Assembly: GCA_963839605.1 (NCBI GenBank)
Contig: CAWIWK010000059.1
Coordinates: 1,126 to 65,125, forward strand
DNA from: an uncultured Acidimicrobiales bacterium
GTDB taxonomy: Bacteria > Actinomycetota > Acidimicrobiia > Acidimicrobiales > UBA8190
Direction: 5' to 3'
DNA length: 64,000 bases
Below, one piece after another: positions 19,522 through 55,671 of this stretch; the stretch's first letter is position 1, and every line of letters begins with the position of its first letter. Below the pieces are notes generated by a model. The model searched no databases. It worked only from the letters and a program-made list of their open reading frames with translations, and was not told the DNA's origin. The translations under genes and the position numbers were made by a program.

Positions 19522-20300
19522 ATGGAGATCGAGGGGTCGAGCGTGCTCGTGACGGGGGCGTCGTCGGGGATCGGCGCCGCCCTGGCCCGCCTGCTCGCCC
19601 GCCGTGGGGCGACGGTCGGGCTGGTGGCGCGGCGACAGGACCGCCTGGCCGCGGTGCTCGAGGAGTGCCGCCGCGACGCCCCGGGGTCCCGGTCGTGGGT
19701 CGCCGACCTCGGCGACGTGGAGTTGGCCGAGCGGGTGGCGGTGGAGGCGTGGGAGGCGTTCGACGGCCTCGACTGCCTGGTGAACAACGCCGGGGTGCCC
19801 ATGCGCCGCCACACCACCGAGCTCGACTACAGCACCCTGGAGTGGGTGATGCGGGTCAACTTCTTCTCCCCGGCCCGCATGACGATGGCGCTGCTGCCCC
19901 GCATGGCGCGGCGCGGTCGGGGATGATCGTCAACGTGTCGAGCGTGGCAGGCAGGCTCGGCAACGCCAACGAGGCCGCCTATTCGGCCAGCAAGTTCGCC
20001 CTGTGCGGGTGGAGCGAGGCCATCGCTGTCGACCTCTTCGACTCCCCCATCGAGATCAGGCTGGTCAATCCCGGTCCCATCGACACCGAGATCTGGGACC
20101 TCCCCGGCAACGACGACCCGCTCTACTCGGGCCCCAAGATCCCGGCTGCGGAGATGGCCGAGGGCATCGTGACCGCCATGGAGGGCGACACCTTCGAGCA
20201 CTACGTGCCGGACATGCGCTCCATCGTGGAGGCGAAGACCGCCAATCCCGATCCGTTCATCGAGGGGATGGCGTCGATGCTCCGCCCGGGCACGCCCTGA
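19522..20300 (+). CDS. SDR-family oxidoreductase; 1 frame disruption ~19920
   Basis: MEIEGSSVLVTGASSGIGAA...NNAG (ORF 19474..19926), then MIVNVSS...YSASKFAL... (ORF 18903..20300). Confidence 0.8.
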
Positions 20301-20333
20301 CCGGGGTCCCCTGAACGAGGGCGGGCGCGGCGC

Positions 20334-21952
20334 TCAGGTGCGCTCGGTGGCTTCGAGGTAGCTCTCGATCCCGGTGGCGATGCCCTGGGCGGCGAGGGCT
20401 CGCCACTGCGGGTCCTGCACCAGGGCGGCGTCGTGGGCGTTGCGCATGTTGGCGCACTCGATGAGCACCTTGGGCACGGTGGAGAGGTCGAGGCCGCCGA
20501 GGTCCGACCGCTCCACGATGCCGTCCTGGCCGGTGTAGTCCGACGGCGGTTCACCGGTCACCGACGCGAAGGCGTCGCGCACGTCCAGTGCCAACTGGGC
20601 CGACGGGGCGACGATGGCCCTGTTGTCGGAGATCGAGCTCACCACGCCGACCGGGGCGTCGACGGCGAAGCCGACGCCTCCCGGCGGCCCGCCGTCGGCA
20701 TGGATCGACACCGCCGCCGCGGCGTGCAGGTCGTTGGCGATGGCGGCGCGCTCGTTCACGCACGGGCCCACCCCGTCGTCGCTCGTGCGGGTGAGCACCA
20801 CGTCCGCCCCGGCCGCCTCGAGCAGCGCCTGGGTCTGGACCGCCACCGCGAAGGTGAAGGCGTGCTCGGGGTACCCGTTGTCGGTCGAGGTCCCCGCCGT
20901 GTCGCACGGCTCGGTGAAGCCGCCGCCGTCGATGGGCCGGTCGATGGCGCCGGGGTCGGCGCCGTTGCCCCCGTCGTGCCCGGGGTCGAGCACCACCACC
21001 ATGCCGGCCAGGGGCGGCACCGACACCGACCCCCGGTAGGAGGCGGTCCCGAAGGCGTAGACGCCGCCGTCCGCCCCCGCCAGCCAGTAGCCGGCGCCGT
21101 CGGGGGTGGGCGCCACCGCCACCACGGCCCGGTTGAGGACGAGGGCGCCGGTCGAACCCTCGAAGGGGGCGTCGAAGGCGAACACCCCGCCGTCGGAGGC
21201 CACCAGCCAGTAGCCGCCCGTGGCCGGGTCGGCCGCCATCGCCACCACCGGGCGGGACAGGGGCCGCCCTCCATGGACCCGGCGAAGGCGGCGTCGCCGA
21301 AGGCGAACACCCCGCCGTCCGCTCCGGCCAGGAGGTAGCCGCCGCCGTCGGCGGTGGCGGCCATGCCGATCACGGGGGCATGGAGAGCCAGAGCGCCGGT
21401 CGACCCCTCGTAGGGGGCGTCGAAGGCGAACACCCCGCCGTCGGAGGCCACCAGCCAGTAGCCGCCCGTGGCCGGGTCGGCCGCCATCGCCACCACCGGG
21501 CGGGACAGGGGCCGCCCTCCATGGACCCGGCGAAGGCGGCGTCGCCGAAGGCGAACACCCCGCCGTCGGAGGCCACGAGCCAGTAGCCGTCGTCGTCGGC
21601 GGTGGCGGCCATGCCGACGATGGGAGCGTCGAGGGTGCGCCCCCCCCGTCGAACCATCGAAGGGGGCGTCGAAGGCGAACACCCCACCGTCGGAAGCAAC
21701 CACCCAGTAGCCGCCGGTCAGCCGGTCGGGGACGACGTCGACCACGGGGGCGTCGCTCGTGGGGCGAGTGGCGTCGACGACGTGGGCCCGGGTCCCGTGC
21801 ACGCTGCTCCCGGGCCCGCTCCCGGCCCCGCTTCCGGGCACGCCGGTCGAGGCGACCGAGCCCGTCGCCATGAGCACGGCGACGCCGACGACGCCGCACG
21901 CCAGTGCCCCGAGCAGCGTGCGCCCCCGACGAGGCCGACCCGTCGCCGTCAC
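20334..21952 (-). CDS. secreted N-acetylmuramoyl-L-alanine amidase (Amidase_3) preceded by about six [15 protein letters not shown]-type repeats; several frame disruptions
   Basis: C-terminus [12 protein letters not shown]...VSIHADGG...LIECANMRN. Repeats such as [24 protein letters not shown] are spread over three frames. Signal-like [24 protein letters not shown]. Start could be 21952 or 22009. Confidence 0.75.
21143..21660. repeat. tandem ~248-bp DNA repeat (two repeat-blades per unit) inside the amidase gene
   Basis: 21165..21319 is identical to 21413..21567 (155 bp, compared by eye). Flanks are diverged copies. Confidence 0.85.
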
Positions 21953-21987
21953 GGCGTGCGCCGCGGTCGCGGGCGCGGCCCGCCGCT

Positions 21988-22472
21988 TCAAGTGCGAGCG
22001 CCACGGCACGCACCGGATCGTCGGTGCGCATCACGGCGCCGTCGGCCGCGCCCCGGCGGATCAGCTCCCACGTGCCGACGCCGACGACGGGCGTGCCCGA
22101 CCGCAGGGCCAGCGCCATCTCCGACAAAGTGCCGTACTCGCCCCCCACCGCCACCACGGCGTCGGCCGCCCCCACCACCAGCGCGTTGCGGGCCTCGCCC
22201 AGCCCGGTGGGCAGCGCCACGTCCACGTGGGGATTGGCGTCGGCCCGGTCGTGGCCGGGAAGGATGCCGACGGTGAGGCCGCCCGCGCTCTTCGCCCCCC
22301 GGCACGCCGCCTCCATGACACCGCCCAGCCCCCCGCACACGAGCACGGCGCCCGCCTCGGCCACGGCCCGGCCGACGGCCTCGGCCCGCTCGTCGTCCTG
22401 CGTGTGTGCGTCGGCGCCGCCCACGACCGCCACGTAGAGGGGGGCGCCGCCGGGGCGCGGGGATCTCGTCAC
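21988..22472 (-). CDS. TIGR00725/LOG-like (SLOG) Rossmann-fold protein; 3' end uncertain
   Basis: GTG start. LYVAVVGGADA...VLVCGGLGGVMEAACRGAKSAGGLTVGILPG...AVVAVGGEYGTLSEMALAL. The ORF runs on into the amidase region without a stop (track ORF 20334..22472). Confidence 0.65.
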
Positions 22473-22475
22473 GGC

Positions 22476-22535
22476 GTGCGCACTCCCGACGGGCTCACTC
22501 CCACCGGGCTCACTCCCACAGGGCTCACTCCCATC
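22476..22535. repeat. about four tandem 15-bp units (g)ggctcactcccaNN
   Basis: gcgcactcccgac gggctcactcccacc gggctcactcccaca gggctcactcccatc. It spans the gap between the ABC-2 permease stop (22525) and the SLOG gene start (22472). Confidence 0.8.
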
Positions 22536-23259
22536 GGAAGGTGACCGCCGCCGCCAGCGGTGCCGCCACAGCCCAGGTCACGAGCACGAGCCAGGCCCAG
22601 CCGGGCACCGACACACCCAGGCCGAGCGCCCGGTGCAGCGCTTCGGCCAGGGCGGCCGACGGCAGGACCTTGGCCACGCCCTGCAACCCGCCGGGCAGCT
22701 TGGACAGGGGTGCCAACATGCCGCTCACGAGGAGGAGCACGAGCCACAGCCCGTTGGCGGCGGCCAGGTTGACCTCGGCCCGCAGCACACCGGCGAGGAG
22801 GAGGCCGAGGCCCCCGAAGCCGGCGGTGGCGAGCACCACCACCAGCACGGCGAGGCCCAAGCCACCGGCCGTGGGGTGCCAGCCGAGCCCGAGCGCCACG
22901 GGGACGAGCACGGCGAACTGCACGGCTTCGACCACGAGGATGGCCACGATCTTGGCGCCCAGGAGGGCGGGCCGGCCGAGGGGGGTCGCCCCCAGGCGCT
23001 TCAGCACACCCTGGCCCCGCTCGAAACCGGTGGCGATGCTCAGGTTCACGAATGCGGTGCCCATGACGGCGAGGGCCAGGACGCCGGGTGCCAGGAAGGT
23101 GACGGGGTGACCGGTCCCGGTGGGCAGGAGATGGACCTCGGAGAAGAAGACGAGAAGCAGCACAGGGATACCCAGGGTGAGCAGGAGCGACTCGCCCCGC
23201 CGCACGGTCATCCCCACCTCGGCCCCCGACTGGGCGGCCAGCCGGCGCAGCGTGCTCAT
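22525..23259 (-). CDS. ABC-2 type transporter permease
   Basis: 244 aa with six hydrophobic segments. Overlaps the upstream ATPase gene by 4 nt. Confidence 0.8.
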   Translation of the reverse strand: MSTLRRLAAQSGAEVGMTVRRGESLLLTLGIPVLLLVFFSEVHLLPTGTGHPVTFLAPGVLALAVMGTAFVNLSIATGFERGQGVLKRLGATPLGRPALLGAKIVAILVVEAVQFAVLVPVALGLGWHPTAGGLGLAVLVVVLATAGFGGLGLLLAGVLRAEVNLAAANGLWLVLLLVSGMLAPLSKLPGGLQGVAKVLPSAALAEALHRALGLGVSVPGWAWLVLVTWAVAAPLAAAVTFRWE

Positions 23260-27066: not shown

Positions 27067-27781
27067 GTCCGGTGGAGATCTCGAAGCGGTAGCCGACGCC
27101 CCGGACCGGTGGTGATGATGGTGGGCGCCGACGAGTCCGGCCTCGACGTGGCTCCGCAGCCGCTTGATGTGGACGTCGAGCGTCTTCGTGTCGCCGACGT
27201 AGTCGGACCCCACACACGGTCGATGAGCGTGTCGCGGGTGAGGACCCGGCCCGCGTTCTCGATGAGCAGCGACAGGAGCTCGAACTCCTTGCGACGCAGG
27301 TGCACCTCTCGCCGCGCACGAAACCCGGTGGCGGTCGGGGTCGAGCCGCACGCGCCCACCTCGAGAACGCCCCCGTTGTCGACGGCGCCGCCGCCGGCCC
27401 CGGCCGGGAGCCGCCTCGCTGCCCGGCGAGCGACGGAGCACCGCGCGCATGCGGGCCACGAGCTCGCGGAGGCGGTAGGGCTTGGTGACGTAGTCGTCCG
27501 CGCCCACCTCGAGACCGACCACGGTGTCGATCTCGGTGCCCTTGGCCGTCACCATGATGATCGGCACCTGCGAGTCGGGCCGGATGGCGCGGCACACGTC
27601 GACCCCCGACATCTTGGGGAAGCATGACGTCGAGCAGCACGAGATCCGGTTCGAGGGAGTCGAACATGGCCAGCGCCTCGGGCCCGTCGCGGGCGATGGA
27701 GACGTCGAAGCCCTCGCGCCCGAGCCCGATGACGAGCGCGTCGACGAAGGACTCCTCGTCCTCGGCCACGAGGACCGTCAC
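27063..27781 (-). CDS. regX3: OmpR-family response regulator, RegX3-like; 4 or more frame disruptions
   Basis: VTVLVAEDEESFVDAL...DLVLLDVMLP, MSGVDVCRAIR..PIIMVTAK..EVGADDYVTKPY, LRRKEFELLSLL, DYVGDTKTLDVHIKRLR and VRGVGYRFE lie in three frames. Confidence 0.8.
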
Positions 27782-27783
27782 CG

Positions 27784-27837
27784 CCCCGCCGGAGGCGGGG
27801 ACGTTGTCGCGGCCCCTGCCGGCCGCGCCGGCAGGGG
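27784..27837. other. two perfect GC hairpins in the senX3-regX3 spacer
   Basis: ccccgcc-gga-ggcgggg (27784..27800) and cccctgccggc-cgc-gccggcagggg (27813..27837). Confidence 0.7.
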
Positions 27838-27909
27838 GATCGGCCGGCGCGGACCATGCCCGGGGCGCGCCGCGTGGCCCGACTGTGCTCCGGGGGAACT
27901 GCTCACGAC

Positions 27910-29240
27910 TTAGCCGACCTCCGAATGGGCGGGCAGGATCAGGCGGAAGGTCGACCCCTCACCCTTCGCGCGAGTCCACCTCGACGTGGCCCTGATGGTT
28001 GGCGGCGACGTGCCGCACGATCGAAAGGCCGAGGCCGGTGCCACCGCTGTTGCGGCTGCGACCCTGGTCGACACGGTAGAAGCGCTCGAAGATGCGATCG
28101 AGGTCACGGGCCGGGATGCCCACGCCGTGGTCTTCCACCATCAGGCGGACCTGGCCCTCGGCCATGCCGCCCGAGATCGTCACCGAGCCGCCGTCGTAGG
28201 AGAACTTCACGGCGTTCTCGAGGAGGTTGTAGAGCGCGGATACGAGCTGGCGCCGGTCTCCGAGCACCGTCACCGGCGGCGGCTCCTCGAGCACGATCTT
28301 CACGTCGCGCTGTTCGGCCGCGGCGCGGACCCGCTCAACCGCCTCCGCCATGACCAGGTTGACGAGCACGGGCTCGCGGCGGCGGCGCCTCCTCCGCCTC
28401 GATGCGCGACAGGTCGAGCAGGTCGTCGATGATCCTGCTCACCCGGAACGCCTCGGGGTGGATCCGGCTGGCCAGTCGCTGGGCCACGGTGGGGTCCACC
28501 TCCGCCACCAGTGTCTCGGCCAGGAGCCCCAGCGCGCCCATGGGTGTCTTCAGCTCGTGGCTGACGTTGGCCACGAAGTCACGGCGGATCTCCTCCAGGC
28601 GGCGGCGCTCGGACACGTCGTCAATGGCCGCGATCACGCCCAGTGTGCGGCGCCCGTCGTCGATGAGCTGGGTTGACACCGCCAGCGTGCGCCGCGGTGG
28701 GCCGTAGAGATCGAGGGTCCGGTTGGCCGAGCCCTGCTTCCACGCGTCGGCGAGCAGGTCGACCACGGCCTGGGCGGCGAGCGCGTCGCCGTGGCGTCCG
28801 CCCATGAGGCCGACGGCCCGGGCGTTGCGGAACACCACCGTGCCGTTCTCGTCGCACACGATCACACCCTGGGGCAGGGTGTCGAGGGCACGCCGGAGCC
28901 GGATGGCGTCGGCCGACGATTCGGCCACCGCCTCCGCAGCGCGGTCGGTGACGAGCTCGAGATGGTGCAGTGCCGGCTCGACCCCGGTGCCGCTCTCCTC
29001 GGTGGGGGCGTCGACACCGAGGCGCGAGGCCAGGGCGGAGAGCCGTTGCTCGAGTGCCTGTCGACCCGAGCGCCGACCCAGCACGGTGGCCACGACCACC
29101 CCGATGATCCCGAGCGCGGCGAGCGCGACGAAGCCGACGATCACCACGCTCGAATCGACTCCGCCGGCGCCGAGCACGGCAACAGCATGACAGGGCTGGA
29201 CGCGCGCCGGGTCTGGCGTCCGCGGCGCACCGCCCGCCAT
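27910..29240 (-). CDS. senX3: PAS-containing sensor histidine kinase, SenX3-like; about 2 frame disruptions
   Basis: TM anchor, PAS-like LPQGVIVCDENGTVVFRN, H-box RRDFVANVSHELKTP, N/G boxes LLENAVKF and GGTGLGLSIVRHVAANH, tail GEGSTFRLILPA. Pieces are in ORFs 28335, 27959 and 27910. Confidence 0.8.
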
Positions 29241-29293
29241 CCCCGCTGCGGCGACCGTCCGGCCACGTGGTCCGGGAGTTGGAGTGAAACATC

Positions 29294-29332
29294 TTGAAAA
29301 GTCATGAAAAGGCACCTATCGTCATGAAGAGG
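29294..29332 (+). promoter_or_regulatory. predicted promoter (-35 TTGAAA, 17 nt, -10 TATCGT) with two 12-bp direct repeats GTCATGAA(A/G)AGG 20 bp apart
   Basis: TTGAAA 29294..29299 and TATCGT 29317..29322. Repeats at 29301..29312 and 29321..29332. SD GGGAGGAG at 29344..29351. The only AT-rich island in the divergent senX3/T4SS-like spacer. Confidence 0.45.
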
Positions 29333-29357: not shown

Positions 29358-29663
29358 GTGATGGTGACGAGCGTGGCCGTGATGGCGTCGGGCGTGATCC
29401 TCGACCCCAACACGGGCAATCTCCCCGGCGGTGACGTCCTGCAGAACCTGACGGACGGGATCGGGGGCTGGGCGCTCGTGTTCTGCCTGGTGGGCCTGCT
29501 CGTGGGCGCCGCCGGGTGGGCGCTCGGCGCCCACGCCCAGAACTACCACCAGGCGTTCAACGGACGCCGGACGGTGCTCGTGTCCGGGTTGGCGGCACTG
29601 CTCGTCGGCGCCGCGCCGGCCATCGTCAACTTCTTCTTTCACGCCGGTCAGGGAGTGCACTGA
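29358..29663 (+). CDS. small two-helix membrane protein in the VirB2/TrbC-pilin position
   Basis: 101 aa with a hydrophobic N-terminus and a second helix (GWALVFCLVGLLVGAAGWALG, LVSGLAALLVGAAPAIV). First gene of the module and has a good SD. Confidence 0.45.
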   Translation: MMVTSVAVMASGVILDPNTGNLPGGDVLQNLTDGIGGWALVFCLVGLLVGAAGWALGAHAQNYHQAFNGRRTVLVSGLAALLVGAAPAIVNFFFHAGQGVH

Positions 29664-29665
29664 CC

Positions 29666-30937
29666 GTGCACGGCGCGCTCGGTGTGTGTGCCGGTCTGGA
29701 TCCGGTGACGGGTGGTGCCTGCGGCGCGGCCAGCGGCGCCCTGGGGGGCGCGGTGGGGTCGGCGGTGGGCGGCCTCTTCGCCGACGCCGGGTTATGGGTC
29801 GTGTCGGGAGCGGTGTGGCTCATGAACGAGGTGGGCCGCGCCATGACGGCGAGCACGGCGGTGGAGCTCGACGCCACGTGGTTCAAGGCCCACGAGGCCG
29901 TCATGGCCGGACTGGCGGCAGCTGTGGTCGTCCCCATGGTGTGCTGTGCCGCCATCCAGGCCGTCTACCGCCAGAGCCCGTCGATGCTGGTGCGGAGCTT
30001 TCTCGTCTATCTGCCGTTGTCGGTCCTTTTGACGGGGGTGGCCGTGACGCTCGTGCGCCTTGCCCTTGCTGTCACCGACGCCCTTTCCGCCCAGGTGATG
30101 GGGGGCGCCGGCGCGAGCACGTCGAGCCTGTTCACCGACCTGGCCGTGGCGCTGGCGGGAGGGGTGGGTGGTCCGGCACCGGGCTTCGCCGTCTTCGCCG
30201 GCGGCCTGCTCGTGGCGGCGGGGGCGCTCGTGCTGTGGCTCGAGCTCGTGGTGCGGGCCGCAGCCGTGTCGGCCGCCGTGCTCTTCTTGCCCCTGGCGCT
30301 CGCCGCGCTCGTCTGGCCGGCGGTGTCGCACTGGTGCCGGCGCCTGGCCGACACGCTCGTGGCGCTCATCCTGTCGAAGCTGGTGGTGGCGGCGGTGCTC
30401 TCGTTGGGCGTGGCCGCGCTGGCCGGCGGCGGGTCGTCGGTGGGGACGGGGCAGCCGGGGGGCTTCGCCGCCGTGGTCACGGGCATCGCCCTGCTCCTGC
30501 TGGCCACGCTGTCACCGTTCACGCTCCTCCGCCTGGTACCGGCGGTGGAGGCGGGAGCGATCGCCCATCTGGAGGGCCTGCGACATCGGGCGGTGAGCTC
30601 GGCCCGCTCCTCGGCGCTGACGGGCGCGGACGTGGCCCGGGACCTGTCGCGCCGGGGCGACGGTAGCGGGCACGGCTCCGCCGATACGGGTGCGGTCGGC
30701 ACGAGCGGTGCACGCACCGTCGCCGGTGTCGTGGCCGGCGTCGGCGGTGACGTTGCGGGTGCGGGTGTAGGTGCAGGTGCAGGTGGGGGTGCGGTTGGAG
30801 GAACGGGCGCCGCCGCGCCGCTCGAACCGCCCGCGCTCAACGAGACCACATGGGAAGAGGCGGGCCGACAGGTCGCCGTCGCCGCGTCGTCGCCGGGGAC
30901 GCCGCAGGGCCGGGGCGACGCGCCCTCCCAGGGGTGA
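29666..30937 (+). CDS. polytopic membrane protein, VirB6/TrbL-like
   Basis: About 423 aa with six or more TM helices, followed by a Gly/Ala-rich cytoplasmic tail. GTG start lies 2 nt after the previous stop. Confidence 0.5.
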   Translation: MHGALGVCAGLDPVTGGACGAASGALGGAVGSAVGGLFADAGLWVVSGAVWLMNEVGRAMTASTAVELDATWFKAHEAVMAGLAAAVVVPMVCCAAIQAVYRQSPSMLVRSFLVYLPLSVLLTGVAVTLVRLALAVTDALSAQVMGGAGASTSSLFTDLAVALAGGVGGPAPGFAVFAGGLLVAAGALVLWLELVVRAAAVSAAVLFLPLALAALVWPAVSHWCRRLADTLVALILSKLVVAAVLSLGVAALAGGGSSVGTGQPGGFAAVVTGIALLLLATLSPFTLLRLVPAVEAGAIAHLEGLRHRAVSSARSSALTGADVARDLSRRGDGSGHGSADTGAVGTSGARTVAGVVAGVGGDVAGAGVGAGAGGGAVGGTGAAAPLEPPALNETTWEEAGRQVAVAASSPGTPQGRGDAPSQG

Positions 30938-31021
30938 CGCCGCCCCCGGCGGACCGGGGCCTGCGACCGGCGACGGGCGCGACGCCCCGGGTGGCACCCG
31001 CCGTCCCCCCGGGTCGGATCG

Positions 31022-32462
31022 GTGAGCTCCGACGACGGGCGGCCGGCGCGGTACCGCTTCGGGCCCTTGGAGCGACGGGGGCTCGTGGCGGGATGGCGCG
31101 GCGGGCAGATCGCCGCCGTGGCGGCCGGGCTGCTCGTGGCCGTGGCCGTGGTGCGCGTTTCTTCTTCTCCCTTCGGGGTCGTGGCGGCGGTGGCGGTGGT
31201 GGCGATGAGCGTGGCCGCCGCCACCTGGCCCATCGGCGGACGGACGGCGGAGGAGTGGGCTCCCGATGCCCTGCGTCACGTCGCCGCCCGCAAGGGCCGG
31301 CAGCGTCCGGTCCGTCGAGGCGTGCTCGACGCGCTGCGCGTCGTTCCCGTCGAGGTCGACGGGCTCGGACAGGTGGGCGTTCTCCACGACGCGCTGGGTG
31401 GCACCTGCACGGCGGTGGTGCGCGTGTCGGCGCCGGGAATCGTCCTCCTGGGAGAGCAGGACAAGGTCCGACGCGTGGACGACTGGGCGGGCGTGCTGGC
31501 CGCGCTGGCACGCGACCGCTCGACCGTGCACCGGCTGCAGTGGATCGAGCGGTCCGCTCCCGCCCCGGTGGCTGCGGTCCCTCGGGAACCGGCGGGCCAT
31601 GCCGCGGCCCGCGCCTCCTACGAGGCACTGCTGTCGGCGGAGGCGGGTGCGTCGTGGTCGCACGAGGTGTACCTGGCCGTCACCGTGCGGGCCACCAGGT
31701 CACAGTGGACGCGTCCGGTGGCGAAGGTCGACGCGGCGGCGTGTGCATCGTTGTTGCGCGAGGTGGCCGGTCTCAGACGCCGGCTCGCCGACGCGTCGCT
31801 CGACGTCAGCGCCGTGCTCCCTCCGCACACGGTCGTCGCCCTCGTGCGCGACACGTTCGACCCGGGTCCGTCGCCCGAGGCCCCCGCGCCTGCGGGCTCG
31901 GCGCCGGTGCGGATGGGGGCACCGGCGGCTCCGGTGGAGGGCGGCGCATGGCCGTGGCCCATGGCGGTGTCGGTGGAGTGGGGGCGCCTGCACGCCGACG
32001 CCGGCTGGCATGCCACGTTCTGGGTGTCGGAGTGGCCCCGCATCGACGTGGGCCCCGACTTCCTGGCGCCTCTCTTGCTCCCCTCGGGGGTCCGGCGCAC
32101 CGTGTCGGTGGTCATGGAGCCGCTCGGCCCGGTGGAGGCCGCCCGGAAGATCGAGAAAGGCGCGCACCGCCGACGTCGCCGACGCCGAGTTGCGACGCCG
32201 CGGCGGGTTCCTGGCCACGGCGCGGCGCCGGCGCGAGGAGGAGGTGCTCGCCCGACGCGAGCTGGAGCTGGCCGACGGGCACGCCCACTACCGCTTCACC
32301 GGCTACGTCACGGTGGGCGCACCGGACCCCGACGCACTCGACGAGGCGGTGGCGGCGGTGGAGCAGTCGGCGGCCCGGGCCGGCATCGAGCTGCGGCGCT
32401 GCTACGGCGCCCAGCTGGAGTCGCTTCTGTGCACGCTCCCCTTCGGACGCGGGCTTCCCTGA
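31022..32462 (+). CDS. PrgI/VirB3-like N-terminus with large C-terminal domain (SCO6880-family-like); 1 frame disruption ~32160
   Basis: YRFGPLERRGLVAGWRGGQIAAVAAGLLVAVAVV plus a second TM helix, then a ~400-aa soluble region. Tail ...DAELRRRGGFLATARRRREEEVLARRELELADGHAHYRFTGYVTV... is in ORF 31266..32462. Confidence 0.55.
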
Positions 32463-32472
32463 GTCCGCCGCC

Positions 32473-33819
32473 ATGGGACACGGCGCCCACGAGGCCACCA
32501 CCCGCCATCTCGGCGCTCTCTTTCCGTTCCTGTCCGAACCGGGCCTGGGCATCGACGGCGCCCTGGTGGGACGCGACCTGCTCGGCGGACCCTTCCGCCA
32601 CGACCCCTTCGCGCTGTACCGGTCGGGGGCTGTCACCAATCCCAACATGGTGGTGGTCGGGCAGATCGGCAGGGGCAAGAGCGCGTTCGTGAAGACCTAT
32701 CTGTGGCGCCAGGCCGTGTTCGGTCGCCGGGCGTGGGTCGTCGACCCCAAGGGCGAGTACGGCGCGCTGGCCCGTGCCTGGGGTGTCACACCGGTGGCGC
32801 TGCGCCCGGGAGGACGCATCCGGTTGAACCCACTCGACGCTCCCGCCGCCCGCGACCGCCACGACGCCCAGGACGCGGTGCGCATGCGGGCCGAGTTGCT
32901 GGCGTCGTTGTCGTCGGCGAGCCTCGGCCGGTCCCTGGCACCCCCGGAGCGCACCGCCCTGGAGCTGGCGGTGGCCGAGGTCTCTCTCCCGCCACCGGCC
33001 CGGTCGGCGGGGGCGCAGCCGCCGTGCCCCACCCTGCCGGCGGTGGTGGAGGCGCTCCTGCACCCAGCCGAGTCGGCGGCCGCCACCATCGGCACCGACG
33101 CGCCCGGCCTGGCCGCCGACGGCCGGGACGTGGCGCTCGAGTTGCGACGGCTGGTGGCCGGCGACCTGCGCGGCATGTTCGACGGGCAGACCTCGGAGGG
33201 CCTGCGCCTCGACGCCTCGCTCGTCGTCCTCGACCTCTCGGCGGTGTATCACTCCGCCGCCCTGGGCGTGCTCATGACGTGCGCCACCGCCTGGCTGCAC
33301 GCCGCGCTGGACGGCGTGGGTGCGCACGGCGCGCCGGACCCCGACGTCCCCGCGCCGACGGGCACGGGGCGTGACGGGGGCGTCGTGCTGGTGGTGGACG
33401 AGGCGTGGGCCATCCTCGCCAACCTGGCGGTGGCGCGTTGGCTGCGATCGTCGTGGAAGCTGTCGCGGGCCCGGGGCGTGGCCAACGTGGCGGTGGTGCA
33501 CCGGCTGTCGGACCTCGACGCGTCGGGGGCGACGGGATCCGAGCAGGTCGGCCTGGCCCAGGGTTTGCTGGCGGACTCCGAGACACGCGTCATCTACGCC
33601 CAACCGCCGGGCGAGATCGAGCGCTCCGCCGCTGCGCTCGGCCTGTCGTCGACCGAGGCCGACATCGTGCCCCACCTGCGCCGGGGCGTGGCCCTGTGGA
33701 AGGTGGGGACGCGGTCGTTCCTGGTGGAGCACCGGCTGTCTCCGCACGAGGTGGCCATGGTGGACACCGACGCCCGCATGGGCAGGGGCGAGGCACACGG
33801 GGGAGAGACGCAGCGGTGA
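32473..33819 (+). CDS. VirB4/TraC-like conjugation-type ATPase (short, C-terminal ATPase domain only)
   Basis: 448 aa. Walker A VVVGQIGRGKSAFVK, Walker B VVLVVDEAWAIL, downstream RGVANVAVVHRLSDL. Confidence 0.7.
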   Translation: MGHGAHEATTRHLGALFPFLSEPGLGIDGALVGRDLLGGPFRHDPFALYRSGAVTNPNMVVVGQIGRGKSAFVKTYLWRQAVFGRRAWVVDPKGEYGALARAWGVTPVALRPGGRIRLNPLDAPAARDRHDAQDAVRMRAELLASLSSASLGRSLAPPERTALELAVAEVSLPPPARSAGAQPPCPTLPAVVEALLHPAESAAATIGTDAPGLAADGRDVALELRRLVAGDLRGMFDGQTSEGLRLDASLVVLDLSAVYHSAALGVLMTCATAWLHAALDGVGAHGAPDPDVPAPTGTGRDGGVVLVVDEAWAILANLAVARWLRSSWKLSRARGVANVAVVHRLSDLDASGATGSEQVGLAQGLLADSETRVIYAQPPGEIERSAAALGLSSTEADIVPHLRRGVALWKVGTRSFLVEHRLSPHEVAMVDTDARMGRGEAHGGETQR

Positions 33820-35324
33820 ACGGCCTCGTCCCCGCCGCCCTGGCGTTGGCGGTGGGGTGGGGTCTCGTGGGCTCGCGTCGCGGTGCGCTCGGCGCCGGTG
33901 GCGTGCCCCGGATCCCGGGCCGCGCCCCGGGTGCCCGGCGCGGTGGCGGCGGGCACGGTCTGACGGCCCGGCGCCACGAGCCTGAGCCGGCGCGCTGGGC
34001 CACGCGGCGCGACCTGGGGCCGCTGGTGGTGTCCACACCGACGGCCGGCCGCCTGTCGCTCGGGCTCGCCCATCACCGGCTGGTGGCCGCCGAGCCCGGG
34101 CACTCGGTCCTCGTGGTCGGACCCACCCAGAGCCGCAAGACGAGCGGCTTCGCCGTGCCCGCCATCCTCGAGTGGGAGGGGCCGGTGGTGGCGGCGTCGG
34201 TGAAGGCGGACCTCGCCCGCCACACCGCGGCGTGGCGGCGCAGCCGCGGCCAGGTTTGGGTGTACGACCCGTCGGCGGTCACCTCGCTGCCCGGGGCGTC
34301 GTGGTCGCCGCTCGACGCCTCGGTCACGTGGGAGGGGGCACGCCGTGCGGCCGCGTCGCTCACCGAGGTGGCGCGTGGCTCCGCCGGATCGCTCACCGAC
34401 GGCGACTTCTGGTACGCCACGGCGGCCAAGTTGCTGGCCCCGTTGCTCCAGGCGGCGGCGGTGTCGGGTCGGACCATGGCCGACGTGGTGCGCTGGCTCG
34501 ACACCCAGGAGGTGGACGAGGTGTACGAGGCGCTCTCCGCCGGCGGCGACGGGCGCGCCCTGCAGGCGGCGCAGGCGTCGTGGGGGCGCGACGAGCGCCA
34601 GCGCAGCGCCGTGTACACGACGGCCGAGACGGCGGTGGAGGTGTTCGCCGATCCGGTGGTGGCGGCCTCGGCGCACGCCGGTGCGGCCGTCGATCCCGTG
34701 CGCCTCCTCGACGGCCACAACACGCTGTACCTGTGCGCGCCGGCCCACGACCAGCGGCGGCTGCGCCCGCTGTTCGCCACGCTGGTGGCGCAGGTGGTGG
34801 AGGCCGCCTACGAGCAGCGCCACGCAACGGGCGCGCCGCTCGACCCTCCCCTGCTCGTCGTCCTGGACGAAGCGGCCAACGTCGCCCCGCTGGCCGAGCT
34901 CGACGTGCTGGCGTCGACGGCCGCCGGACACGGCGTACAGCTGGTGACGGTGTGGCAGGACCTGGCCCAGCTCCATGCCCGCTACGGCACGAGAGGCCAG
35001 AGCGTGGTGAACAACCACCGGGTCAAGGTGTTCCTGTCGGGAATCGCCGACCCCGCCACCCTCGAGCACGCCAGCGCGCTCATCGGGGACACCGAGCAAC
35101 GGGCGTGGGCCACGACGGTCGACGGCTTCGGCGCCACGTCGGTGACCGACTCCCCCACGCCGCGCCGTCTGGCCCCGGCCGACGCCCTGCGCCGGGTGCG
35201 CCCGGGCGAGGCGGTGGCGGTGTCGGGCCATCTGCCCCCGGTCCACCTGAGGCTGCGGGCCTGGCAGGACGACCGGGGGCTGCGGCGGCGGGTCGAATCC
35301 GCCCCGGAGCCCTCCCCGCCGTGA
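33816..35324 (+). CDS. type IV coupling protein (VirD4/TraG/TraD family)
   Basis: 502 aa. GTGA overlap with the previous gene. N-terminal TM, Walker A VVGPTQSRKTSGF, Walker B LLVVLDEAANV, then VTVWQDLAQL. Confidence 0.7.
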   Translation: MNGLVPAALALAVGWGLVGSRRGALGAGGVPRIPGRAPGARRGGGGHGLTARRHEPEPARWATRRDLGPLVVSTPTAGRLSLGLAHHRLVAAEPGHSVLVVGPTQSRKTSGFAVPAILEWEGPVVAASVKADLARHTAAWRRSRGQVWVYDPSAVTSLPGASWSPLDASVTWEGARRAAASLTEVARGSAGSLTDGDFWYATAAKLLAPLLQAAAVSGRTMADVVRWLDTQEVDEVYEALSAGGDGRALQAAQASWGRDERQRSAVYTTAETAVEVFADPVVAASAHAGAAVDPVRLLDGHNTLYLCAPAHDQRRLRPLFATLVAQVVEAAYEQRHATGAPLDPPLLVVLDEAANVAPLAELDVLASTAAGHGVQLVTVWQDLAQLHARYGTRGQSVVNNHRVKVFLSGIADPATLEHASALIGDTEQRAWATTVDGFGATSVTDSPTPRRLAPADALRRVRPGEAVAVSGHLPPVHLRLRAWQDDRGLRRRVESAPEPSPP

Positions 35325-35433: not shown

Positions 35434-36357
35434 ATGGCCCCCCACCAAGAGGACGGACGCCGTCTGCATTCCGGCCACAGCGTCGCGGCGCCGGCCCGCC
35501 CCCGCCTTCGGGCGGCGCCCGCGCTGATGGCCGTGGTGGCCCTGATGGCCCTGGCGGCGGGATGGTCGATGCCGGCAGGGGCCGCATCGGGCACGGTCGA
35601 CGTCGGGACCAACGCCACGTTCGGATCGATCCTCACCGATGCCGGCGGACTCGCCCTCTACACCTTGAACACCGATCACAACGGCATGAGCACGTGCACC
35701 GGCTCGTGCGCCCAGGTGTGGCCGGCGTTGACCGTGCCGGTCGGCACCACGCCGAGCGCCGGTCCCGGCGTGCCGGGGACGGTGGCGGCGGTGGTGCAGG
35801 CCAACGGCACCGACCAGGTGACCTACGACGGGGCCCCGCTCTACACGTTCCTGAGCGACTCGGCCCCGGGCCAGGTCACCGGCAGCGGAGTGGCCGGCTT
35901 CGCCGTGGTGCGGGTCACCCCGACGACGCCTCCCACGACCACCGCCACGACGACACCCCCGCCTCCCACCACGGCCCCGCCCTCTCCCACGGCGACCACC
36001 TCCCCGACCACCTCCCCGACCACGACGCGCTCCCCGGTGACATCGTCGGGGGGCTCCTCCACCACGCCGTCCTCCGGGTCGGGCGCATCGCCGGGATCGC
36101 CGGGCGCGGCGCGGCCCGCGGCGGGCACGTCGGCTCCCACCGCCGCTTCGACGTCGGCGGCGGGCTCGCTCGCCTTCACCGGGCCCGGCCCGGGGATCGT
36201 GTGGTTGGCCCTGGCCGGCGTGGGCCTGCTCGTGGCCGGTGTCGTGTTGCTGCTGGTGGTCCGAGGACACGCGCTGCTCCGAAACGAGCCATGGCAGGGA
36301 GCCCCCGCCCGGCCCGGGTGGGGGAGGTCCACCACGACGGTTACGGTGGCCTCGTGA
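35434..36357 (+). CDS. secreted, sortase-anchored (LAFTG) surface protein with two COG4315/Lipoprotein_15-type repeats and a Thr/Pro-rich stalk
   Basis: Signal peptide ...LAAGWSMPAGAASG. GSILTDAGGLALYTLNTDHNGMSTCTGSCAQVWP and QVTYDGAPLYTFLSD. TTPPTTTATTTPPPPTT stalk. LAFTG plus TM plus a basic tail. Confidence 0.7.
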   Translation: MAPHQEDGRRLHSGHSVAAPARPRLRAAPALMAVVALMALAAGWSMPAGAASGTVDVGTNATFGSILTDAGGLALYTLNTDHNGMSTCTGSCAQVWPALTVPVGTTPSAGPGVPGTVAAVVQANGTDQVTYDGAPLYTFLSDSAPGQVTGSGVAGFAVVRVTPTTPPTTTATTTPPPPTTAPPSPTATTSPTTSPTTTRSPVTSSGGSSTTPSSGSGASPGSPGAARPAAGTSAPTAASTSAAGSLAFTGPGPGIVWLALAGVGLLVAGVVLLLVVRGHALLRNEPWQGAPARPGWGRSTTTVTVAS

Positions 36358-37705
36358 CCCACGACCCACCGGGCGCGGCCCGCGCACCGGCCGATCCGGA
36401 CCTCACCCGTCTGGTGGCCGAGCGCAGCGCCGAGCTGCACCGCACGGCGCGCGCCACCCGCGACCGTGCCGCCGCCGACGGCACCCTGGTGTGGGACCCG
36501 TTCGACCCGGCCTGGGTTCGGGACCCTTACGCCGTGTACGCCGAGTTGCGCCGCGCCAATCCGGTGCACCGCAGCCCGCTCGGGTTCTGGGTGCTCACCC
36601 GCCACGCCGACTGCCTCGCCGTGCTGCGCGACCGTCGGGTGAGCAGCGACGGGCGCAACATCGAACCGGGCAGCTTCCGGGAGCTGCGCGCCGTGGACAT
36701 CGACGTGCTGCGGGCCGACGACGCCGTCCTGGCCGAGATGGCCCCGTTCCTGTTCCGCGACCCCCCCGACCACACGCGCCTGCGGGGCTCGTGCAGAAGG
36801 CGTTCACGCCCCGTGTGGTGGAGGGCCTGCGCCCCCGGGTGGAGGAGATCTGCGAGGAGCTGCTCGACGCCGCCCTCGAGCGGGGCGAGGCGGATCTCGT
36901 GGCCGACTTCGCCTACCCCCTGCCGGTGCAGATCATCGTCGAGATGCTGGGCGTTCCGGCGCAGGACCACGCCCAGTTCCGGGAGTGGTCCGAGGCGCTG
37001 GCACGCGGCCTCGATCCCGACTTCCTCCTCCCCGCCGAGGCCGTGCAGCAGCGTCTCGGGGCCGTCCTGTCGTTCGCGCAGTACTTCGCATCGCTCATCG
37101 AGGAGCGCCGCGCCCAGCCCGGGGACGACCTCCTCAGCCGGTTGATCGCGGCCGAGGAGCAAGGCGACGTGCTCACCCAGGGTGAGCTGTTGTCGACGTG
37201 CATCCTGCTCCTCGTGGCCGGCCACGAGACGACCGTCAACCTGATCGCCGGCGGCACCCTCGCCCTGCTCGAGCATCCCGACCAGATGGCGCGCGTCCGC
37301 GACGACCCGTCGGTGCTGCGCAGCGGCGTGGAGGAGATGCTGCGCTTCACCCCGCCGGTGCAGCTGACCGGCCGCGTCGCCCTCGAGGACATGGACGTGG
37401 CCGGTGTCCGCGTCGGCCGGGGCGAGTTCTGCATGCTCCTCATCGGCTCCGCCAACCGGGACCCCGACGCCTTCACCGACCCCGACACCTTCGACGTCGG
37501 GCGGCAGGACAACAACCACCTCGGCTTCGGCTTCGGCATCCACCACTGCCTGGGGGCGTCGCTCGCCCGCCTCGAGACGCAGGTCGCCGTGTCGGCCTTG
37601 CTGCGCCGGGCCCGGCACGTCGAGCGCAGCAGCGACACGCTCACGTACAAGGAGAACATCGTCCTGCGGGGACTCGACGCCCTCCCCGTGCGCCTGTCGG
37701 CCTGA
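36354..37705 (+). CDS. cytochrome P450; 1 frame disruption ~36785
   Basis: FRDPPDHTRLR, LLLVAGHETT, EEMLRF and FGFGIHHCLGASLA (heme Cys loop). GTGA overlap with the surface-protein gene. Confidence 0.85.
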
Positions 37706-38426: not shown

Positions 38427-39849
38427 TCACAGCGGCGCGCCGGGGGCCACGAGCGGCCAGGGGCGCTGGCGCTCTGCCATCAGCGCCAGGTCGAGCAGGA
38501 GCTGCTCCTCGTGGTGCCGTCCGATGACCTGCATCCCCACGGGCAGCCCGTCCACGCTCCCCACGGGAATCGACACCGCCGGGTTGCCGGCGAAGTTGGC
38601 GGGAAAGGTCAGGTTCCCCTGGTTGGCGCCGGCCCGGATGACGTCGCCGAAGCGCTCCACGAGGTCGACGTCGCCCACCGTCATGGGGACCGGCCCCTCG
38701 GCGCCGAAGGCCACGTCGGGGTTGGTGGAGGCGAAGACGAAGTCCACCTCGTCGAGCAGGTCGGCCATGGCCTCGTGGGCCGACACCCGGAAGCGCTCGG
38801 CCGTGGCCGCCATGGCGAGGTCGTAGTGGTGGGTGGCGATGTTGATCCCCAGCATGACCTCGAGCGTCAGATCCTGCTCGCACGCCGGATAGCGGTCACC
38901 GAGGTCGGCCGCCAGCGTGACCAGGTTGGACATGGCCCACTCGAACAGCGCCGGCGGGAACCGCACCGCCACGTCCACGCGGGCCAGCCCGGCGTCGGCC
39001 ACGAGCGCCTCGGCCGCCGACGTCACGAGGGCGGCCACCTCGGGATGGACGACGGCCACCCCGAGGTCGACGGCGATCACGGCCCGCTTGCCGCGTAGCG
39101 CCGCGCCGTGGGTGCCGATCCCCGCCTCCCAACCCTCCACGCGCGGCAGGCTCAGGGTGTCGTGGGGGTCGTAGCCGTTGCAGACGTCGAACCACCGTGC
39201 CGTGTCGCGCACCGACCGGCTGATGCACCCCAACGTGACGGTGTGCGGTGTCTGGTGGGCAAAGGGTCCCTTGGGGATCCGGCCGAAGGTGGACTTCAGC
39301 CCGAACATGCCCGTGAAGGACGGCCGGGATGCGGATGGACCCGCCACCGTCACCGCCCGAGGCGATGGGGACGAGCCCACCCGCCACCACCGCCGCCGAT
39401 CCCCCCGAGGAGCCCCCCGGCGTTCGCTCGAGGTTCCACGGGTTGCGGGTGGTGCCGTGCAGCTTGGTGTGGGTGAGGTTGATGCCGCCGAACTCGCTGG
39501 ATGTGGTCTGGCCCACGAGCACGGCGCCTGCGCCCACCAGGCGGCGCACGTGGGTGGAGCTGTGGTGCGCCACCCGGTCGGCGAAGACGAGCGAGGCCTC
39601 GGTGAAGGGCCACCCCTCCACCGGCTCGAGCTCCTTGATGCCGACCGGCAGCCCGCCGAAGGGGAGCGACACGTCGGCGGCCGCGGCGGCCGCGGTGGCG
39701 GCCTCGGCGTCGACGTGGCTGAAGGCGTTCAACGCCGAGCCGTCCATGGCCGCCAGGCACGAACCGAGCGCCTCGGACGGCGATATCTCGCCCCGGCGGT
39801 ACGCGTCGACGAGCGAGCAGGCGTCCCCGGACCACGGCGAGTGGGGCAC
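38427..39849 (-). CDS. amidase-signature family amidase; 1 frame disruption ~39330
   Basis: GGSSGGSAAVVAGGLVPIASGGDGGGSIRIPA (AS signature), then FGLKSTFGRIP... in ORF 38427..39380. Confidence 0.85.
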
Positions 39850-52835: not shown

Positions 52836-53074
52836 TCAGCTGTCGGTCTCGCGCCGCCGCGCCGTGGCCAGCTCGGCTGCGATGCGCTGCGCCTCCTCGG
52901 TGTCGACCTGCTCCAGGGCGTAGCCGCTGTGGACCACGAGCCAGTCACCCACCGCCGGGGGATCGCCGTCGTAGGCCAGCAGCGAGACGTCGTGGCGCGA
53001 GCCGTCGACGTCCTGCACGGCCACCTGGGACCCGGTGGGGGGACCCACGACCAGGTGGAGCCGGCTCACGCACA
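52836..53074 (-). CDS. hypC: hydrogenase maturation chaperone HypC/HupF family
   Basis: GTG-Cys start (VCVSRLHLVV...), GDWLVVHSGYALEQVDTEEAQ. Confidence 0.7.
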
Positions 53075-53548
53075 CGACGTGGAGCCTGCCACGACATCGA
53101 GCACGCGTGCCGCCGCCTCCTCCACCGACGCGGCCACGGCGTCGCTCAGTCCCATGCCGTCGCCGAAGTCCTCCCCCTCGATCCCCACCGCCACCACCCG
53201 TCGCGGGGCGCGGTCCACGGCGTGGGCCAGGCGCAGGGCGCCGGCCACGCCCACGGTGTGGGTGCTGGCCGTGGCGTCGCCTGGCGTGTCGGGGCCCAGC
53301 TCGACCACGGTCACGGTGCCGGGCGTCGCCCCCGTGCGCACGGCGTCGACCACCACCGCCAGGGTGGCACCGTCCCACTCGCCCAGCAGGTCGAGCGGAT
53401 CGCCGAAGGGCCCCGACACCGTGGTGTCGCGGCCGGTGCCGTGGTCGGGCCGTTTCCCGCCTGCGAGGCGCTGCGCCACGAGGGCTGTCACGGCCGCACC
53501 GACGCCGTCGTCGCGGCGGTACTCGTTCCCCATGGCGAGCACCACCAC
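53066..53548 (-). CDS. hydrogenase maturation endopeptidase (HyaD/HoxW/FrhD family)
   Basis: VVLAMGNEYRRDDGVG...LAVVVDAV...GTVTVVEL...STHTVG. Confidence 0.75.
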   Translation of the reverse strand: MVVLAMGNEYRRDDGVGAAVTALVAQRLAGGKRPDHGTGRDTTVSGPFGDPLDLLGEWDGATLAVVVDAVRTGATPGTVTVVELGPDTPGDATASTHTVGVAGALRLAHAVDRAPRRVVAVGIEGEDFGDGMGLSDAVAASVEEAAARVLDVVAGSTSCA

Positions 53549-53570
53549 ACGCCGCGCGGCGGGCGCAGCG

Positions 53571-54871: not shown

Positions 54872-55671
54872 GGGGGCCGCTCCCGCCATCGGGTCGTTGG
54901 CCTCGCTCTCCGCGGAAGGCGGGGGCTCCGGCGTTGAAGGTGCGGAACAGGCGCGACACGTCGACGGCGGCGAGCCCGTCGGCGCGCAGGCGCCCAGCCA
55001 GGGAGGCCGTGTTGGCGGTGTCGGCCGGCCCGAAGCACCCGAAACAGCCGCGGTCCACCGACGGGCACAATCCCCCGCAGCCGGCACGGGTCACCGGCCC
55101 CAGGCACGGCGTCCCCTTGGCCACGAGCACGCACACCGTGCCGCGGCCCTTGCACTCCTGGCACACGCTGTGGCCGGCGATGGCCGGGCGCCTCCCGGCC
55201 AGATGGGCCAGGACCACCTCGAGCAGCTGCCCCCGGTCGACGGGGCAGCCGTGCAACTCGTAGTCGACGCGGACGTGCGACGAGATGGGCGTCGAGGTCG
55301 CCAGCGTGGCGATGTAGTCGGGACGGGCGTACACGGTGGCGGCGTAGGCGCCCGCCGACGCGAAGTTGCGCAGGCCCTGGATCCCGCCGGCCGTGGCGCA
55401 GGCGCCGATGGTGACGAGCACCCGCGACGAGGCCCGCACGGCCTGGATGCGCTCGGCGTCGTCGGCCGTGGTGATCGACCCCTCCACCAGCGACACGTCG
55501 TAGGGCCCGGCCACCACCGCCCTGCTCATCTCGGTGAACTATGCGATCCGCACGGCGCCGGCCAGGGCCAGCAGCTCGTCCTCGCAGTCGAGCAGGGTGA
55601 GCTGGCAGCCGTCGCACGAGGCGAACTTCCACACCGGCCAAGGTGGGCCGGCTGTCGGTGGCGCCCGTCAT
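54868..55671 (-). CDS. [NiFe] hydrogenase small (delta-type) subunit; 1 frameshift plus an in-frame TAG at 55539..55541
   Basis: [12 protein letters not shown] / [31 protein letters not shown] / TAG / [24 protein letters not shown]...[10 protein letters not shown]...CPVD...[15 protein letters not shown]. Confidence 0.75.

Follow-up and report, generated by a model that had tools for sequence, protein, structure and literature searches.

Gene content of the T4SS-like block

The locus described here is a block of five co-directional genes (g1 to g5) resembling the core of a type IV secretion system (T4SS), located on the + strand at positions 29358–35324 of a 64-kb stretch of contig CAWIWK010000059.1 (hereafter, the window) from an uncultured Acidimicrobiales bacterium. 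The closest matches of the window proteins come from uncultured Acidimicrobiales (Actinomycetota) found in soil and peat metagenomes. The G+C content of the block is 0.71–0.77, compared with ~0.74 for the window. An initial annotation, made from the sequence alone, had judged this content to be like that of the flanks, and the five genes, coordinates, motifs and neighbours that it reported were all correct. No intrinsic terminators were found within the block.

The first gene, g1 (29358–29663, +), encodes a 101-amino-acid protein with two transmembrane (TM) helices that matches Pfam DUF6112 (28.5 bits, cutoff 25; 1.3e-6) and appears VirB2/pilin-like by topology and operon position, with sub-threshold Pfam matches to T4SS_pilin and TrbC/VirB2. 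It is 27–39% identical to the DUF6112 genes opening plasmid operons. The second gene, g2 (29666–30937, +), whose start is confirmed by a 100% identical database protein (P0401), encodes a polytopic protein with ~6 TM segments and a Gly/Ala-rich tail, a probable VirB6/TrbL analogue. It had no match in Pfam, and its best and sole NCBIfam match was SCO6881_fam (1.2e-9), far below the strict cutoff of that model. BLASTP recovered plasmid proteins named TrbL or T4SS protein by PGAP (1e-9 to 3e-14), which are themselves weak TrbL/TrbL_4 matches, and TrbL_4 was weakly matched by 8 of the 51 members of the g2 family. The AlphaFold2 (AF2) model of g2 was poor (pLDDT 64, pTM 0.31), and TrwI/VirB6 ranked second in its Foldseek search with a non-significant E value of 1.2. 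The VirB6-like call is based on topology, operon position and the BLASTP matches to plasmid TrbL/T4SS proteins. Of the earlier assignment of g2 as VirB6/TrbL-like, topology and operon position agree with it, while the missing Pfam match and the poor model leave the evidence weak.

The last gene, g5 (33816–35324, +), whose start overlaps the g4 stop by 4 bases, encodes a VirD4/TraG-type coupling protein (T4CP) with one weak N-terminal TM segment, a Walker A motif (GPTQSRKTS) and a Walker B motif (LDEAAN). Its placement as a T4CP, already proposed from these motifs, is confirmed by Pfam matches above cutoff to T4SS-DNA_transf (125.4 bits, cutoff 20.1; 3.6e-36), TraG-D_C (70.5 bits; 1.6e-19) and TrwB_AAD_bind (44 bits; 1.8e-11). 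It is 31–33% identical to plasmid T4CPs, and a search of PDB sequences gave no match. A phage or defence origin of the block was considered and dropped, as no evidence supported it; the sole PHROGs match, that of g4 to a P-loop/terminase family, was spurious.

The two remaining genes account for the VirB4 component. Interrupted by one frame break, g3 (31022–32462, +) matched the SCO6880 family (NF042935) with 148.9 and 73.4 bits on its two fragments (cutoff 60). The adjacent g4 (32473–33819, +) encodes the C-terminal ATPase domain of VirB4 as a separate protein, a CmdB-like ATP-binding protein with GQIGRGKS and VVDEAW motifs. Its membership of the VirB4 family is established by a Pfam AAA_10 match above cutoff and by a full-length match of a profile of its relatives to the structure of the VirB4 C-terminal domain (PDB 4AG5; 4.7e-32). 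Among 31 homologues, down to 36% identity, Walker A residues G63, G66 and K69 and Walker B residue E310 are invariant, and D309 is nearly so. Only the C-terminal halves of VirB4-type NCBIfam models are covered by g4 (positions 413–565 of CD1110 and 423–751 of TIGR00929), and g3 and g4 fall below the full-length curated VirB4 cutoffs because the protein is both split and divergent.

An exhaustive homologue search for fused forms among 1.8 billion representatives recovered proteins of 870–930 amino acids whose C-terminal half is the ATPase. In the fused proteins P0132, P0182 and P0209, the N-terminal half is SCO6880_fam (316 bits) and is 38% identical to g3, and a VirB4 model spans the SCO6880/ATPase junction in fused homologues. 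Given that these homologues join the SCO6880 family to the ATPase, g3 and g4 are the halves of one VirB4, with g3 comprising a VirB3-like hairpin and the VirB4 N-terminal domain. When the closest intact relative of g3 was modelled with AF2 (pLDDT 79.7, pTM 0.76) and the model was searched with Foldseek, the top 14 PDB matches were all TrwK/VirB4 of R388 (E 6e-10 to 5e-7; probability 1.0; ~410–430 aligned columns). The N-terminus of g3 is a two-helix TM hairpin, modelled as helices 29–48 and 52–70, which continues directly into the VirB4 N-domain. In one plasmid homologue of g3, a weak PrgI match (0.02) was seen, and the g3 profile found no match among PDB sequences. The initial annotation had described g3 as VirB3-like with a large extra domain; the fused homologues and the TrwK/VirB4 fold identify this extra domain as the N-terminal domain of VirB4 itself.

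Single-gene fusions of g3 and g4 (867–932 amino acids) were observed in metagenomes (P0132, P0138, P0182, P0209, P0213, P0218, P0250, P0261 and P0263), so that split and unsplit versions of this VirB4 lineage both circulate. Cluster look-ups of ten distant homologues returned metagenome proteins in almost every case.

The g3 family (window, 31022–32462; L001, 8084–9535) also resembles EccE, intact SCO6880-family proteins matching Pfam EccE (PF11203) above threshold (1.2e-8). In the Foldseek search with the g3-relative model, the next PDB entries after TrwK/VirB4 were 6sgz_D of ESX-3 (probability 0.92) and 7b9f_E of ESX-5 (probability 0.96), chains of ESX core complexes that we take to be EccE. 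These matches suggest possible homology between EccE, a type VII component, and the N-terminal domain of VirB4; we found no paper that states such a link. The likeness of the SCO6880 family to EccE, in both Pfam and structure, hints at a connection between T4SSs and type VII secretion systems. For annotation purposes, SCO6880-family and "EccE" matches beside an AAA_10 ATPase should be taken as a split VirB4.

The break in g3, near 32154–32158, consists of one extra base in GAGAAAGGCG, at a point where an intact relative is in frame. When a syntenic relative's genes were compared with the window by tblastn, ~8 frame switches were apparent over 17 kb, of which the response regulator has two or three, the kinase two, and g3, a P450 and an amidase one apiece. 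The affected genes are otherwise 75–88% identical to intact orthologues, and most switches adjoin short homopolymers. Window-wide, there is a frame switch every 2 kb or so (e.g. at 27100–27145, 27600–27640, 27945–27980 and 28360–28395, and further at 32154–32158, 36780–36820 and 39260–39325). Considering this frequency, the conservation of the genes and the nearby homopolymers, the frame breaks, including that of g3, look like indel errors of long-read assembly, the signature of an unpolished assembly. The g3 gene is fragmented likewise in relatives whose "contig_NNNN" names point to long-read assembly. Real pseudogenization of g3 was rejected in view of the single extra base relative to intact relatives and the similar breaks throughout the neighbours, and the apparent pseudogenes of the window are consequently not to be trusted. 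The earlier observation that four of the five genes are intact amid broken housekeeping genes holds for the single break in the block, but carries no signal, one break per 6 kb being not unusually few.

Plasmid relatives and chromosomal fixation

The whole 64 kb was swept against Pfam in three batches, with the coding phase chosen by G+C content at third codon positions and every segment translated, because stop-free frames in high-G+C DNA and frameshifts defeat simple ORF calling. The sweep detected no relaxase, integrase, recombinase, transposase, Rep/Par or FtsK protein in the window, nor any VirB8/TcpC protein or VirB1-type hydrolase (CHAP/SLT/NlpC-P60/M23), and thereby upholds the absences claimed initially (relaxase, integrase, Rep/Par, VirB1/CHAP, VirB8/TcpC and FtsK). 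No credible att-like direct repeats flank the block within the window, where only low-identity chance repeats were seen. No tRNA adjoins the block either; the Rfam search of the window detected three tRNAs only, at 13.7–14.0 kb, the nearest lying 15 kb off.

Relatives of g4 were found by tblastn in 244 actinobacterial plasmids out of 72,556 plasmids searched, all at ≤45% identity, and three of them were read in detail: that of Iamia sp. SCSIO 61187 (NZ_CP050950, 34 kb), a member of Acidimicrobiales, Streptomyces pZL1 (NC_023316) and S. angustmyceticus p1 (NZ_CP104318). All three carry a colinear operon encoding a peptidoglycan hydrolase (NlpC/P60, M23 or DD-carboxypeptidase), DUF6112, a protein of ~250 amino acids, a TrbL-like protein, the SCO6880 family and an ATP-binding protein. 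In the Iamia plasmid and pZL1, the ATPase is followed by a T4CP and then a small protein, with a large MobF relaxase a few kb downstream; in S. angustmyceticus p1, the gene for the T4CP is found ~9 kb downstream, and the stretch that was read contains no relaxase.

All five window proteins match the plasmid operons in order, with 25–41% identity, and the Iamia plasmid copy is only 40% identical despite having the same gene order. The window and the plasmids share the succession of DUF6112, TrbL-like protein, SCO6880, ATP-binding protein and T4CP, and VirB4 is split likewise. Unlike the window, the plasmids add the hydrolase and the ~250-amino-acid protein after DUF6112, two of them add the small protein after the T4CP and the MobF relaxase, and the Iamia plasmid further adds genes for a ParA-like ATPase and an IS3 transposase. 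Since the five proteins match in order, the block is, as judged from these alignments, the membrane core of the plasmid machinery without the hydrolase, the ~250-amino-acid protein and the relaxase.

In a scan of 185,579 species-representative genomes, at least 546 encoded a relative, and the best 80 were analysed. These were all Acidimicrobiales metagenome-assembled genomes, with 57–86% identity. By tblastn, g4 was found in 80 of them, g5 in 76, g3 in 73, g2 in 59 and g1 in 58, and the neighbouring kinase, regulator and ROK kinase in 57, 53 and 53, respectively; the shortfalls are due to many loci being truncated contigs. The kinase and regulator were adjacent and divergent in 53–57 of the 80, so the synteny mapping that the initial annotation had proposed places the block at the same locus, beside the two-component system, among these best-matching genomes. 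In two relatives with called genes, a pyridoxal phosphate-dependent decarboxylase, an old yellow enzyme, the regulator and the kinase lie on one strand and are followed by the five genes and then by a P450, a lipase, an amidase, a nitroreductase and a ROK kinase. No homologue of the MobF relaxase was found within ±10 kb of the block in any of the 80 relatives.

The identity to the reference of module genes correlates with that of the flanking genes (Spearman 0.57–0.80) in the same range as flanking genes correlate with each other. The ratios of nonsynonymous to synonymous substitution rates (Nei-Gojobori dN/dS) were 0.21–0.26 for g1 to g5 and 0.20–0.29 for the neighbours, values that are rough since dS is near saturation (~0.8–1.1). 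Given the shared locus, the co-divergence with the flanks and a dN/dS of ~0.2 like that of the neighbours, the block is vertically inherited and maintained under purifying selection and is not a decaying integrative and conjugative element (ICE). Lacking the relaxase, integrase, cell-wall hydrolase and ~250-amino-acid plasmid protein, it has been kept in place across Acidimicrobiales.

Both halves of the block are kept in relatives in which it is split (L014, L021, L022, L040, L062, L073 and L085); in L021, the insert between g3 and g4 encodes an acyl-CoA dehydrogenase, an SGNH hydrolase-like protein and a large membrane protein. In the closed chromosomes L018 (OY970234.1), L020 (OY970155.1) and L069 (OY969923.1), the module lies 68–343 kb from the start of records of 4.0–4.7 Mb. 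If these records begin at dnaA, the block is origin-proximal, like the reported T4SS of Patescibacteria.

The shared promoter region and neighbouring genes

A two-component system (27077–29239, −) is encoded divergently from the block and is a candidate regulator of the operon. It comprises a PhoR/SenX3-like kinase (~27925–29239, −) with HisKA, HATPase_c and PAS domains and an OmpR/PhoB-family regulator (~27077–27817, −) with Response_reg and Trans_reg_C domains, both genes being frame-broken in the assembly. The best NCBIfam models for an intact kinase orthologue were PnpS and PhoR, below cutoff. The divergent gap between the kinase and g1 is ~100–120 bp and contains a putative regulated promoter (29285–29322, +), in which TGAAA repeats overlap the −35 element of a sigma-70-like site. 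This site, TTGAAA-17-TATCGT (29294–29322), is the only one of its type between 29.0 and 36.5 kb (expected number, 0.0). The overlapping element consists of three 5-bp direct repeats, TGAAA-N5-TGAAA-N5-TGAAA (29285–29309; TGAAAcatctTGAAAagtcaTGAAA), a triple repeat that is unique in the window (expected number, 0.00). Perfect copies occupy the same intergenic position in nine relatives (L012, L014, L018, L020, L027, L054, L055, L069 and L081), and degenerate copies were found in at least 30 of 58. The element is AT-rich within a genome of 74% G+C.

Phased direct repeats are typical of OmpR/PhoB regulators generally. The repeat element looks like an OmpR/PhoB-type, RegX3-like box that may serve both the kinase operon and the divergent T4SS-like operon, and the RegX3 site at the esx-5 locus of Mycobacterium tuberculosis has the same layout of three 5-bp direct repeats with 5-bp spacers (10.1101/400960).

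The window sweep otherwise detected only housekeeping and metabolic families, including gamma-glutamyltranspeptidase, signal peptidase, purM, HU, ClpS and CtaA/CtaB, along with ABC transporters, serS, an old yellow enzyme, the two-component system, P450s, bioD/F/A, enoyl-CoA hydratase, thiolase, and NiFe hydrogenase with its maturation genes. Upstream of the block lie serS, the old yellow enzyme and the PhoR/SenX3-like kinase with its OmpR-family regulator, and downstream of it a P450 and bioD/F/A. A gene for a cell-wall amidase (Amidase_3) 8 kb away on the opposite strand is unrelated to the block. Its region (~20280–22560, −) contains several copies of a repeat of 16 residues and adjoins a SLOG/LOG-family gene, and in relatives it shows no linkage to the T4SS-like block. 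A NiFe hydrogenase cluster (small and large subunits, HypC and HycI protease) occupies ~53000–57000 (−), and beyond it, downstream, are genes for an FNR-like reductase, a cyclic nucleotide monophosphate-binding regulator and several P450/ferredoxin proteins.

Directly after g5, a gene at 35434–36357 (+) encodes a secreted protein of the Lipoprotein_15/SCO0930 family. Its Thr/Pro-rich linker, C-terminal LAFTG, hydrophobic helix and basic tail correspond to a sortase-type wall anchor, and the protein is missing at this position in both close relatives with called genes (L001 and L004).

Functional interpretation and known counterparts

We consider it highly probable that the block derives from the mating-pair-formation (MPF) core of an actinobacterial MobF-associated conjugative T4SS and has become fixed in the chromosome, where it is inherited vertically. 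The initial proposal of a domesticated, minimal monoderm-type T4SS, rather than an ICE, is supported by the profile matches, the match to a solved structure, the absence of mobility genes from the 64 kb, the fixed locus, the co-divergence with flanking genes and the purifying selection. In the mechanism that we propose, the genes would be transcribed from one promoter whose −35 element is overlapped by the three phased repeats. The five proteins would assemble a translocon spanning the cytoplasmic membrane only, as no hydrolase or VirB8-like proteins are present. In it, g5 would recruit the substrate, a g3/g4 hexamer would act as the VirB4-type motor at the membrane and supply the energy, and g2 with g1 would form the conduit. 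The cargo would probably be a host macromolecule, either protein or chromosomal DNA, rather than a relaxase-piloted plasmid strand, since no relaxase lies beside the block and since the cmd operon of Streptomyces, the one experimental guide, influences septation and the segregation of chromosomes while leaving plasmid transfer as it is (PMC2782261); any specific substrate could be named only with low confidence.

Several points weigh against this conclusion, in addition to the near-saturated dS described above. The function is extrapolated from a distant class, and a relaxase could sit elsewhere in the genome, the searches having covered 64 kb here and ±10 kb in relatives. The VirB6/TrbL assignment of g2 is probable but weak. 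In some relatives, 3–9 kb of metabolic genes separate g1–g3 from g4–g5, so that a single operon is not universal. Control by the divergent PhoR/SenX3-like system is likewise probable from position and motif only, given that repeats typical of OmpR/PhoB-type regulators overlap the −35 element. Finally, the closest precedent, the cmdABCDEF operon of Streptomyces, was likened to the block through its published description and family models.

A quite different reading would see in the block the remnant of a defective ICE or integrated plasmid that has lost its integrase and relaxase and is heading to deletion. Its gene set and order match those of plasmid conjugation operons, g3 is frame-broken in the window, and ICE-screening pipelines class relaxase-less VirB4/T4CP clusters in this way, one of them being shared by every strain of a Streptomyces population (PMC9513070). 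We regard such a remnant as very improbable, as dozens of species, with identities as low as 57%, have the block at this locus, its divergence tracks that of the flanks and its dN/dS equals that of housekeeping neighbours. Moreover, the ATPase motifs are invariant, the G+C content is host-like, no other element genes are left, and the g3 break is one of ~8 similar ones in 17 kb, kinase and regulator included, attributable to assembly error.

The block might instead be a working DNA-transfer machine that relies on a relaxase or DNA-processing enzyme encoded elsewhere, mobilizing chromosomal DNA or unlinked mobilizable elements in trans, or exporting or importing DNA. The coupling protein keeps an intact TraG-D_C/TraM-recognition domain, T4CPs normally dock DNA-protein substrates, the relaxase search had the extent given above, and Streptomyces cmd mutants show chromosome-segregation defects (PMC2782261). 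We nevertheless find this unlikely: in two of the three plasmids, the T4CP gene is followed within a few kb by that of MobF, and none of the 80 chromosomal copies has a MobF homologue nearby, the parts needed to cross the cell wall (a VirB8/TcpC-like protein and a peptidoglycan hydrolase) are absent, and deletion of the cmd operon left plasmid transfer unchanged in Streptomyces (PMC2782261). Secretion of effectors or toxins, like that of Gram-negative antibacterial or host-targeting T4SSs, seems somewhat less plausible still. Relaxase-less chromosomal T4SSs are usually read as co-opted, as in Patescibacteria (PMC12102498), and the sortase-anchored secreted protein (35434–36357) follows g5 in the window, but neither of the two close relatives whose genes were called has this protein there. 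Besides, the block is not accompanied by conserved genes for effectors, immunity or adaptors, its downstream neighbours vary (P450, nitroreductase, ROK kinase), and no envelope-spanning parts are encoded.

The closest counterpart of the block is the cmdABCDEF operon of Streptomyces coelicolor (SCO4126–4131), whose genes are co-transcribed (Xie, Zeng & Qin 2009, PMC2782261). CmdB is a membrane-located, VirB4-like protein with an essential Walker lysine, its conserved lysines K90 and K404 having proved essential when mutated, and CmdB, CmdC and CmdD resemble SCO6878, SCO6880 and SCO6881 (PMC2782261). Deletions in cmd delayed aerial growth, altered sporulation, disturbed septation and chromosome segregation and increased actinorhodin, and left the transfer of an SLP2-derived plasmid unaltered (PMC2782261). 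Like the block, cmd is a chromosomal, co-directional operon conserved across species and related to plasmid transfer genes (SLP2.21–23 for cmd). Among its products are CmdB, a membrane-associated ATP-binding protein of the VirB4 type, CmdC, which is SCO6880-like, and the polytopic CmdD, which is SCO6881-like, besides other membrane proteins. The same set is represented in the block by g3 (NF042935, above cutoff), g4 (VirB4-like ATPase) and g2 (SCO6881_fam, below cutoff). In contrast, cmd has six genes rather than five and belongs to Actinomycetes rather than Acidimicrobiia; its phenotype concerns aerial hyphae and sporulation, traits not known in the Acidimicrobiales hosts, and the cmd paper describes no two-component neighbour or direct-repeat promoter.

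With the monoderm T4SSs of the MPF-FATA/FA classes (pCF10 Prg, pIP501 Tra, Tn916/ICEBs1), the Thermoanaerobacter VirB4 (4AG5) and R388 TrwK, the block shares the VirB4 fold and motifs, a VirD4-type T4CP, a VirB3-like hairpin by VirB4 and a polytopic protein in the VirB6 position. It differs from them in having VirB4 split over two genes and in lacking a VirB8/TcpC-like protein, a VirB1-type hydrolase, a relaxase with accessory DNA-processing proteins, and an adhesin. The T4SS of Patescibacteria (PMC12102498) is similar in its monoderm-type core, its chromosomal and lineage-wide occurrence, the absence of a relaxase and its reading as a co-opted system. It belongs to a different phylum and a separate VirB4 clade, has another accessory repertoire and has been linked to an epibiotic lifestyle, whereas the hosts of the block are free-living soil and peat actinobacteria.

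Systems of this kind have been published already, namely Streptomyces cmd and the relaxase-less chromosomal T4SS of Patescibacteria (PMC12102498), and ICE screens in Streptomyces list a core "defective ICE" found in every strain (PMC9513070). What is new here is that the block occurs throughout Acidimicrobiales with fixed synteny, the explicit reading of the SCO6880 family as part of a split VirB4, the repeat-bearing promoter beside a PhoR/SenX3-like system and the resemblance to EccE. On a broader and rather doubtful view, the block would represent an ancient, phylum-wide actinobacterial membrane translocon exapted from a conjugative T4SS and orthologous to cmd, which would be turned on directly by a phosphate-sensing system of the SenX3-RegX3 type acting at the three-repeat box, would move DNA or a protein through the cytoplasmic membrane when phosphate is limiting, and whose SCO6880 subunit (VirB3 plus VirB4 N-domain) would be the evolutionary source of EccE. 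If true, this would give the membrane complex of the type VII (ESX) system, which RegX3 also controls in M. tuberculosis, a link to T4SS ancestry.

As a matter of routine, clusters of VirB4 and T4CP genes without a relaxase are dismissed as defective ICEs; here, such a core is fixed and under housekeeping-like selection in a large, deep-branching, uncultured order. The split VirB4, the candidate regulator site in the shared promoter region and the likeness to EccE make the question of its role more testable. The finding lends support to the view that a conjugation core has been recruited by Actinomycetota to serve the host, which the 2009 work on cmd suggested but left unexplained.

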